From contig CBDCCI010000001.1 of NCBI GenBank assembly GCA_965214705.1, positions 96,001 to 160,000 on the forward strand: a stretch of 64,000 nucleotides of DNA, given 5' to 3'. The notes below the pieces were generated by a model, which saw nothing but the letters and a program-made list of their open reading frames with translations, was not told the DNA's origin and did not search any database. Of the stretch, positions 41,817-42,430 are shown piece by piece. Position 1 is the stretch's first letter; every line of letters starts with the position of its first letter. The DNA comes from Alphaproteobacteria bacterium (lineage in GTDB: Bacteria; Pseudomonadota; Alphaproteobacteria; UBA828). The position numbers and the translations under genes are program-made.

Positions 41817-42317
41817 ATGAAGAAGTCGGTACGCAAGAAGGACGAAGCCGCACAGTCCCTGCGCATGAACGAGAGGAAATGGTCTAAGCCGCTCATGGAC
41901 GCTGGCTGGACCGCAATTCCCGCCGTCATCATTGAGCGGCAGGCCGCCCTCGGCCTCGACGCGCTTGACGTGAACATCCTGTTGCACTTGGCGAACCACT
42001 GGTGGACGGTCGACAACAAGCCCCACCCGGCTAAAGGCACCATTGCCAAGGCCGTAGGCGTCGATCCCCGAACGGTTCAGCGGCACATCGCCAAGATGGA
42101 GGCCGCCGGTTTCATCCGCCGCGAGGAACGCCGGATTCCCGGTAAGGGCAGCCGGACCAACCTCTATCACTTCGACGGCCTGATCGCCGAGGCCAAGCCC
42201 TTTGCTGAGGAGAAGCTGGCGGAGCGCCGACGGCGAGAGCAGGAAGACAAGGCCCGGCCGGGCCGCAAGGGCCGCCCCCGGCTGACTGTGGTCGGCGGTA
42301 CCGACGACGAGGACTGA
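41817..42317 (+). CDS. Winged helix-turn-helix protein resembling phage/plasmid replication-initiator N-terminal domains
   Basis: GWTAIPAVII, PHPAKGTIAKAVGVDPRTVQRHIAKMEAAGFIRR, SRTNLYHFDGL; GAGAGG RBS. Confidence 0.75.
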   Translation: MKKSVRKKDEAAQSLRMNERKWSKPLMDAGWTAIPAVIIERQAALGLDALDVNILLHLANHWWTVDNKPHPAKGTIAKAVGVDPRTVQRHIAKMEAAGFIRREERRIPGKGSRTNLYHFDGLIAEAKPFAEEKLAERRRREQEDKARPGRKGRPRLTVVGGTDDED

Positions 42318-42324
42318 GAGTGAC

Positions 42325-42430
42325 AGCGGCGTAGCTCAGTCGGACAGAGCCCCCGCATTCGACGGAAATCAGCGTGACAACTGAGAGTACGGGCGGGGAG
42401 ACGCGGGTTCAAGTCCCGCCGCCGCTCCCA
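42325..42430 (+). ncRNA. tRNA-like gene with a 36-nt loop replacing the anticodon loop
   Basis: Acceptor AGCGGCG/CGCCGCT, TA, D arm GCTC-AGTCGGACA-GAGC, stem CCCGC/GCGGG, variable GAGAC, T arm GCGGG-TTCAAGT-CCCGC, C-CCA end. Confidence 0.8.

Follow-up and report, generated by a model that had tools for sequence, protein, structure and literature searches.

In type II toxin–antitoxin (TA) systems with a promiscuous antitoxin (Panacea/PanA and NetFlax; PMC8832971, PMC10440598), as described in the available parts of these sources, a DNA-binding first gene lies tightly upstream of interchangeable toxins, partners are swapped between close relatives, and the systems are small, mobile and distributed over many phyla. 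The same traits are found in the unit described here, a winged helix-turn-helix (wHTH) gene followed directly by the gene of a tRNA-shaped RNA. It lies at positions 41,817 to 42,430 of a 64,000-nucleotide stretch (hereafter the window; positions 96,001 to 160,000 of the forward strand of contig CBDCCI010000001.1, assembly GCA_965214705.1) from an alphaproteobacterium of the GTDB lineage UBA828. In contrast to those systems, the commonest partner here is an RNA, and the wHTH is DnaD-N-like, where theirs are DUF4065 or Xre proteins; DnaD, HTH_36, winged helix and tRNA-like are not mentioned in the available part of PMC10440598. As there is no protein toxin in the window insertion, the cassette itself falls outside type II, and homologues of its wHTH gene stand beside HicA, Fic and MazF.

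In the type VIII system CreTA (PMC10097628, available part) a small RNA is the toxic component and is transcriptionally silenced by a DNA-bound repressor complex. CreT is not tRNA-shaped, unlike the RNA described here, and the CreTA repressor is the RNA-guided Cascade; no CRISPR context was seen in the 1.1-kb insertion that holds the cassette. One CreT reportedly acts through an arginine tRNA. Type III TA systems (ToxIN, AbiF/CptIN) consist of a tandem-repeat RNA antitoxin upstream of an endoribonuclease toxin. The likeness lies in a protein and a structured-RNA gene joined in a short mobile operon linked to phage defence. Here, however, a single cloverleaf lies downstream of a DNA-binding protein without a nuclease domain, and with neither a repeat RNA nor a nuclease the module is not type III.

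As RNAs, tmRNA, the Y RNA YrlA (PMC4201824, available part) and viral 3' tRNA-like structures are alike in having tRNA-like acceptor, T and D modules with the anticodon arm replaced. The module RNA differs from YrlA in its normal tRNA ends, those of YrlA being permuted, as far as the available part of that source goes. Neither Rfam nor ARAGORN matched it to tmRNA or a Y RNA, and no Ro or RtcB gene occurs in the 1.1-kb insertion, the genes flanking it encoding a membrane protein and an EamA transporter. As a protein, the wHTH is like the N-terminal domains of DnaD and phage lambda O in fold and profile and in the direct-repeat arrays beside its gene; in contrast to these, it has no machinery-loading second domain, and it co-occurs with other replicons on plasmids and with toxin partners. 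BrxR and CapW regulators are further DNA-binding proteins found with variable effectors. In PANGU (10.64898/2026.04.06.716658, available part) a conserved DNA-binding NdpA family is combined with many unrelated effectors. None of these is known to have an RNA in the effector position, for PANGU to the extent of the part available.

The original prediction had known of no described family with this gene–RNA layout, and none was found in Rfam, PADLOC or the literature, where subscription papers and closed supplements (e.g., those of NetFlax, PanA and RNA-motif surveys) could still list it. Rfam reports the module RNA as 'tRNA' only, PADLOC has no model for the wHTH, and the cassette is rated as lying outside the known kinds of system.

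Occurrence and anatomy of the unit

The RNA directly after the wHTH gene is not a chance match. Homologues were taken from 60 related genomes (3 clear homologues), from one genome per species (11 loci, in Alpha-/Gammaproteobacteria, Nitrospira, Planctomycetota, Acidobacteriota, Verrucomicrobiota, and Myxococcota), from metagenomes (the best 80 of 189 relatives) and from viral contigs (one locus). With Rfam alone, long 'tRNA' matches were found directly after the homologous gene in 5 loci. A covariance model of our own, built from 7 copies and run on the window and 95 loci, gave 58 long matches on the plus strand (94–124 nt), the window's own and one clipped by a contig end included, plus one truncated copy. 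The RNA is present in 57 of the 92 homologous loci with at least 180 nt of downstream sequence (truncated copy L068 counted), where it starts between -23 and +45 nt from the wHTH stop (median about 8 nt). The RNA-bearing loci are spread over many phyla, with Alpha- and Gammaproteobacteria and Nitrospira among the groups represented. As the loci are often near-duplicates, distinct proteins were also counted, and 45 of 76 are followed by the RNA. The original prediction had proposed a protein and a tRNA mimic as a two-part system; in the covariance-model scan homologous genes do carry the tRNA-like sequence downstream, and the two parts form a real, conserved, mobile unit.

The reverse search, with the RNA model on 151 genomes of the class, gave two long matches, in the window and in genome G187, both beside a wHTH gene (the G187 homologue at 42% identity). 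All other listed matches were ordinary tRNAs of 75–77 nt, and one of the 151 genomes, flagged as unpublished, had ordinary matches only. Homologues of the wHTH occur in 341 plasmid records, and in 5 of the 11 plasmid homologues examined the RNA directly follows the gene (plasmids of Methylocaldum szegediense; Spongiibacter sp. IMCC21906; Caulobacter sp. FWC26; Xanthobacter dioxanivorans YN2; Bradyrhizobium elkanii USDA 94). RefSeq locus tags skip one number exactly at the RNA site in 4 of these 5 (Methylocaldum, B. elkanii, Caulobacter, and Xanthobacter); RNA genes being omitted from the plasmid table, the gap in numbering is a hint that the pipeline has an RNA gene of some kind annotated there. 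A search of public runs returned no RNA run from this organism. A metatranscriptome library contains relatives at 85–95% identity, with one contig spanning the junction of open reading frame (ORF) and RNA; these are assembled contigs and not proof of transcription.

The RNA is the best-conserved part of the module and contains no reading frame: between the window and the closest modules (L013, L035) it is 96–97% identical, against 88–90% for the whole module. The stretch is present as a single copy in the 7.9-Mb genome. The insertion and the repeats that flank it are made up as follows, the ORF and the tRNA-like gene having been placed and described correctly in the original prediction.

41418..41441, left copy of the direct repeat, imperfect; doubles as the 3' end of a membrane-protein gene at 40782–41444
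41442..41530, left arm of the inserted DNA; no blastn-level match to L013 or L035
41531..41816, plus strand, conserved non-coding leader of about 285 nt, common to L013 and L035
41657..41717, plus strand, four iteron-like direct repeats with core AGGAC (cores at 41661–65, 41677–81, 41691–95, and 41713–17)
41817..42317, plus strand, wHTH gene, 166 aa; DnaD-N-like or lambda-O-N-like domain, long C-terminal helix, disordered basic tail
42325..42430, plus strand, tRNA-shaped RNA of class A, 106 nt, found by Rfam tRNA and our covariance model
42431..42545, right arm of the inserted DNA; absent from L013 and L035, where homology stops at 42435
42546..42574, right copy of the direct repeat; doubles as the 3' end of an EamA-type gene at 42563–43474 (minus strand)

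The wHTH gene starts with ATG, with GAGAGG upstream, and its stop codon occupies 42315–42317; the Rfam tRNA match begins at 42325, which bears out the reported spacing of 7 nt between stop and RNA.

Fold and conservation of the RNA

The Rfam tRNA family (RF00005) matches 42325–42427 with 49.1 bits (gathering threshold 29, E 3.5e-9) over all four arms, the anticodon loop being enlarged by an insertion of 32 nt; CCA is encoded at 42428–42430. The window RNA has a 7-bp acceptor stem, canonical D and T arms, and a 36-nt anticodon loop that forms a long hairpin; it scores 107.8 bits with our covariance model. Folded alone, it gives a cloverleaf with a long anticodon hairpin at a minimum free energy (MFE) of -48.3 kcal/mol (z -2.26). 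ARAGORN found no tRNA or tmRNA in the whole window, nor at the module in the 14 loci scanned, and Rfam at E<=10 on 41400–42700 gave the generic tRNA and two chance-level matches, with no T-box, intron, tmRNA or Y RNA.

Among 49 distinct RNAs, 94.6% of the cells are paired, against 37–52% with the partner columns slid, in an alignment fitted to the covariance model, which favours pairing. Double changes occur in 18 of 26 pairs, and none of 500 shuffles reached the observed values. The bases of the tertiary contacts (U8, A14, G19, A21, G53, U54, C56, A58, C61) are kept in 49/49, as is an A after G18-G19, which fits tRNA-Arg identity. The RNA thus has the cloverleaf and tertiary-contact bases of a tRNA; a 7-nt anticodon loop with U33 presenting a triplet is absent. 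The anticodon arm instead measures 52–70 nt in the relatives, with an insertion of 29–45 nt.

Two classes are distinguished. Class A (41 copies, 106–116 nt, the window's RNA among them) has a loop beginning U-U-N-C-G/U-R-C, in which U33 is kept in 35/41, position 35 is C in 39/41, position 36 is G or U in 39/41 and position 37 is a purine in all 41; in the GUAUGG of the 3' strand, U, A and the second G are kept in 41/41. Most class A arms consist of a 7-bp stem, a 5-nt bulge (nt 33–37), and a stem of 9–12 bp with a variable tip, and about 29 of the 41 copies encode CCA. Class B (8 of the 49 copies, 123–124 nt) has two hairpins in place of the loop and is associated with one wHTH clade (tree support 100/100). 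A 78-nt copy that has lost its T arm (L068:3506-3583) looks like a degenerate copy within a clade that carries the RNA.

The anticodon-like triplets are mostly of arginine type (UCG, UCU, ACG, or GCG in most class A copies; UCG in the window). An origin from tRNA-Arg is suggested by this, although a comparison with the host's own tRNAs was not decisive. The RNA could be a true tRNA-Arg gene with a short intron, spliced to a decoding tRNA with anticodon UCG in the window. Arginyl-tRNA synthetase recognizes a set of identity elements, and the triplets, the A after G18-G19 in 49/49 RNAs and the lack of a tRNA-Arg(UCG) in the host genome all agree with such a gene. Inspection of the folds by eye, however, revealed no bulge-helix-bulge (3-4-3) at the junctions, and no Rfam intron family or group I core was matched at E<=10; U33 is kept only in the 35 copies given above, some copies have ACU or GCU, and class B has no anticodon-like loop. 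We know of no protein-dependent tRNA splicing in bacteria, and we consider an intron-bearing tRNA-Arg exceedingly improbable.

In the host genome, ARAGORN reports five overlong 'tRNAs' of 91–94 nt (Arg-GCG, two Ile-GAU, Pro-CGG, and Gln-UUG; sites C1:649902-649994, C1:256637-256730, C1:511597-511688, C2:11055-11145, C3:2795779-2795869), which may be false calls or other odd tRNA-like genes.

The winged-helix protein and its leader

The label 'initiator-like' given to the wHTH in the original prediction is a fair one. Pfam gives HTH-type matches only (HTH_36, E 2e-8, and a weak match to DnaD_N), and the best PHROG match is 'replication initiation O-like' (E 1.6e-10). DnaD N-terminal domains head a profile search of the PDB with 76 homologues (2vn2, 9.6e-7, then 2v79). 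The AlphaFold2 model (pLDDT 86) has a winged helix, a helix at 120–146, and a disordered tail; Foldseek ranks DnaD first and MarR-type regulators after it. With PADLOC 2.0 the helix-turn-helix (HTH) region has weak matches to the Csa3, CasR and CARF-HTH models (best E 3e-6). The family is large, with 296 clusters at 50% identity for E<=1e-30 and 1755 for E<=1e-10.

The very basic C-terminal tail pointed out in the original prediction is present, the protein ending in ...RRRREQEDKARPGRKGRPRLTVVGGTDDED. As a special adaptation to RNA binding it was rejected: the tail is equally basic in proteins with protein partners, the net charge of the last 40 residues being +4.7 in the 45 proteins with the RNA and +4.3 in the 31 others, and the C-terminal part is alike whatever the partner. 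The tail resembles an AT-hook, and it therefore more likely touches DNA than RNA.

Homology of the leader to L013 begins at 41531 and to L035 at 41554, and 1-nt indels relative to L013 exclude a coding frame. A promoter scan of the leader found none; by eye alone, TTGAAT-17-TATTTT at 41529–41557 was noted as a weak -35/-10 candidate. Other clades have different repeat arrays in the same place, for instance GCCTCCC four to five times at a spacing of 21–24 nt, and the leader repeats are most simply read as probable binding sites of the wHTH. A stretch of 14 nt in the leader (41734–41747) is 93% complementary to 42395–42408. A CCTCCC-type motif is commoner in RNA-bearing leaders (29/46 vs. 14/33); as a signal for leader–RNA pairing it was discarded, since it turned out to be a clade-specific repeat array, and no claim is made for it.

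The fold and the leader arrays of 4–5 direct repeats also suit a replication or mobility module, in which the wHTH would be a Rep-like initiator acting on iterons and the RNA a primer, a control RNA, or a recombination or attachment site at the right end. The 341 plasmid records with a homologue agree with this, as do two plasmids on which no Rep is annotated. The wHTH does have the origin-binding winged helix of DnaD-N type, but its 166 aa hold the DNA-binding domain only, with no second domain that would recruit the replication machinery. In 2 of the 4 plasmids checked it is not the sole replication determinant: a homologue-bearing E. coli plasmid of 3.3 kb also carries an RNAI of ColE1 type, and that of Methylocaldum encodes its own RepA. 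In relatives, moreover, toxin genes overlap the wHTH stop, and the conserved tertiary-contact bases argue for a folded RNA rather than for a DNA site. The Rep hypothesis is weakened by these observations, and the replication or mobility module as a whole is regarded as improbable; its mobility side is taken up with the borders below.

A Vibrio vulnificus plasmid of 5.7 kb (L138), on which no Rep is annotated, has a wHTH homologue (52% identity) as its sole non-TA gene and carries two PAGEV RNA motifs of about 120 bits each (L138:836-1054, 3590-3808).

Partners at the second position in relatives

The RNA is the commonest second component of the wHTH family. In the loci without it, the wHTH stop is followed at a distance of -38 to about +100 nt by the start of another gene (in L017 at about +170 nt), and the genes found there encode HicA (E 1e-15), Fic/Doc (5e-13), TIR (2e-13), and NYN proteins (3e-5); IetA (9e-125); an HmaA-type SNF2 helicase (E 0); a relative of PD-Lambda-3_B (L017); a family of hydrophobic (small membrane) peptides of about 50 aa (7 loci); and a YjaZ-like family (5 loci). 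On two Sphingobium plasmids a PemK/MazF gene overlaps or abuts the wHTH gene, with no MazE; in L101 a HicA gene without HicB lies in a small island with a tRNA gene and an integrase at its borders. No other antitoxin gene adjoins the HicA and MazF partners. Complex prediction for the L101 wHTH with its HicA partner gave a score of 0.00, which is no evidence on binding either way.

On the protein tree the RNA partner requires at least 7–9 gains or losses. RNA-bearing and protein-bearing loci stand as sisters, L058 (RNA) beside L079 (TIR), and L069 (Fic) beside L063 and L073 (RNA). L079 and L069 retain the 5' end of the RNA (about 22 nt and about 10 nt, respectively), running into the TIR or Fic gene; no remnant of the RNA 3' end was found downstream of these genes in the two loci. 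As these retained 5' ends show, protein effectors have replaced the RNA in place, and this replacement is the strongest clue to the role of the RNA.

It also bears on the view that the RNA acts only in cis, its tRNA-like 3' end being cut by RNase P so as to define or stabilize the wHTH mRNA, or to separate it from downstream genes. Several points suit a cis role: tRNA-like 3' ends act as processing signals, very little sequence separates the stop from the RNA, and canonical terminators are rare (a T-run within 60 nt in 5/49 loci). Any tRNA or hairpin would suffice for it, however, yet the arm has invariant bases and covarying helices across phyla; there are two distinct and elaborate RNA classes, and protein effectors replace the RNA at the same position. 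We give a purely cis-acting RNA a low probability.

Genes of the HEPN family were seen 8–46 nt after the RNA in three loci (L015:6612-7424, L036, and L086:3581-4985). The L015/L036 gene matches PD-Lambda-3_B (E 1e-78), Aga_HEPN and Hypoth_Ymh, and L086 has two HEPN_AbiU2 genes; the three loci may form three-part variants of the cassette. Among the ORFs directly 3' of the RNA, 8 of 11 scanned had no match in PADLOC, Pfam or both.

These genes are what a protective decoy or inhibitor, acting as a pseudo-substrate that sequesters or blocks anticodon-loop nucleases (HEPN-type, colicin-D-like, or toxins of phages and competitors), would lead one to expect, the RNA then being immunity- or antitoxin-like instead of harmful. 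Such a role would also suit an RNA in which the tRNA core is intact and the anticodon loop, where these nucleases cut, is rebuilt. Most modules, the window's 1.1-kb insertion among them, nevertheless have no nuclease gene; close relatives of L086 are without the HEPN genes, their homology stopping at the RNA 3' end, and the second position is otherwise held by toxins and not by antitoxins. A decoy of this kind is accordingly judged unlikely.

Two further loci were noted. In L022:3974-4435, on a contig of Myxococcota, the wHTH reading frame continues into a C-terminal part that resembles HicA, as judged by eye and by likeness to the HicA of L101. On one of the Sphingobium plasmids (L136:4208-5375) an HTH regulator and a gene of the reverse-transcriptase family lie just 3' of the wHTH–MazF pair, and the neighbourhood looks like a defence island.

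Proposed mode of action

With slightly less than even confidence, and by analogy with the cassettes above, we read the module as an autoregulated cassette resembling TA or defence systems: the wHTH would control the operon, the RNA would mature like a tRNA, and the tRNA mimic would be an effector acting in trans. Control would come from binding of the wHTH to the direct repeats of its leader (about 285 nt), and the RNA would be read from the same transcript. This transcript would be cut at the tRNA-like 5' end. Because the acceptor, D and T arms are canonical, the RNA should be a substrate for RNase P, for 3' trimming and for the CCA enzyme, and so be released and matured; co-transcription and release by RNase P, both put forward in the original prediction, are plausible and fit the short gaps and the intact acceptor and T arms. 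The RNA should be unable to decode, since a long and irregular but conserved hairpin stands in place of its anticodon arm. Once control by the wHTH is lifted, the mimic would target in trans the machinery of tRNA handling or translation. Our most specific guess at its target is arginyl-tRNA synthetase or some other reader of the anticodon loop, which it would contact through the displayed U-N-C-G/U-R bases. The RNA is read as an effector because the same wHTH family heads toxin and anti-phage cassettes and because such genes replace the RNA in close relatives. The position held in relatives by toxin and defence genes favours an effector or a decoy over an antitoxin of the wHTH, the last being among the roles listed in the original prediction.

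Several points weigh against this proposal. The effector role is argued from position and by analogy. In the MFE fold of the window's subtype UCGAC is paired with GU-A-CGG, so that the anticodon-like bases may be hidden in a helix, and class B lacks the U-N-C-G/U-R motif altogether. The ordinary tRNAs that score best with our covariance model are those for Asp, Met, Thr and Pro as well as Arg. The basic tail of the wHTH is not specific to RNA-bearing loci. HEPN genes directly after the RNA (L015/L036 and L086) suit an RNA inhibitor better than an RNA effector, and the initiator-like fold with iteron arrays in the leader leaves a replication role possible for 2 of the 4 small and mid-size plasmids examined.

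A bolder form of the trans-acting effector, which we consider rather unlikely, is that the cassette represents the first type of TA or abortive defence in which a protein restrains a harmful or effector component that is a tRNA-shaped RNA. The wHTH would keep the operon silent. If this control failed, for instance because a phage attacks or the element is lost, the matured mimic would build up and block a step of tRNA handling, candidates being arginyl-tRNA synthetase, EF-Tu, the ribosome and RNase P; growth arrest would follow, as it would from the HicA, MazF, Fic or TIR proteins standing in for the RNA in sister cassettes.

Should the RNA prove to be an effector, it would represent a new logic of TA or anti-phage systems, a tRNA-shaped RNA toxin or decoy governed by a protein, and a new class of bacterial tRNA mimic widespread in the gene pools of soil, water and plasmids. 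Read more cautiously, it is a well-defined, strongly conserved structured RNA with a clear genetic partner, which standard tRNA finders miss or mislabel. The DnaD-N-like wHTH family is in either case a new hub, with many toxins and defence effectors as its partners. Cultured carriers exist, namely the hosts of the five RNA-bearing plasmids and Dyella sp. EPa41, in whose genome the unit is found.

Borders and mobility

The insertion of about 1.1 kb in the window lies between two convergent genes and is flanked by an imperfect direct repeat of 24/29 bp, which rebuilds the 3' ends of both. The site is empty in three genomes of the same genus (G017, G009, and G014), where the flanking genes are joined with nothing between them; contigs in three public runs likewise join across the insertion, skipping 1128–1153 nt, and G+C falls to 0.60–0.63 over it. 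As no integrase or recombinase lies inside the insertion, the element must have moved in trans or by recombination.

Homology to the closest modules is confined to 41531–42435 for L013 (87.6%) and to 41554–42435 for L035 (89.9%), the flanks being unrelated. In other related pairs it opens about 745–805 nt upstream of the RNA start, often with a sharp edge, and stops between -5 and +8 nt from the RNA 3' end. The left arm of the window insertion opens with GACCGGACC..., resembling the left ends GACCGGGTG... of other modules, and GACCGGGTG... opens two independent pairs of modules. L043 and L045/46 have 3.4 kb in common upstream and differ downstream.

The sharp right border at the RNA 3' end, the comparison of L043 with L045/46 and the direct repeat around the insertion would suit a mobility role of the RNA. 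The 3' end of the RNA, however, was not found again at the other border or nearby: a search for an att-type repeat of it at the left border gave nothing above the shuffled background (35 loci), neither the loci nor the 64-kb window contain another copy apart from one chance match, and the direct repeat flanking the window insertion is unrelated to the RNA. An island integrated in a tRNA gene would have a repeat of the 3' part at its far end, which is absent here, and the idea of the original prediction that the RNA is a primer or integration target of a satellite element gained nothing from these comparisons. No neighbouring gene, such as an integrase, is common to all loci; integrases or ordinary tRNA genes lie near a few.

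Ordinary tRNA genes were seen at about 0.1–1.6 kb from several modules (L107:3516-3853, L108, L054:149-235, L110:25-114, L101:2298-2374, L037:1795-1870, L077:3734-3810), which, with the integrase near L101, suggests that many modules sit in islands at tRNA genes. Immediately right of the insertion in the window, at 42563–44421 on the minus strand, is a tandem pair of EamA-type transporter paralogues (303 and 297 aa).

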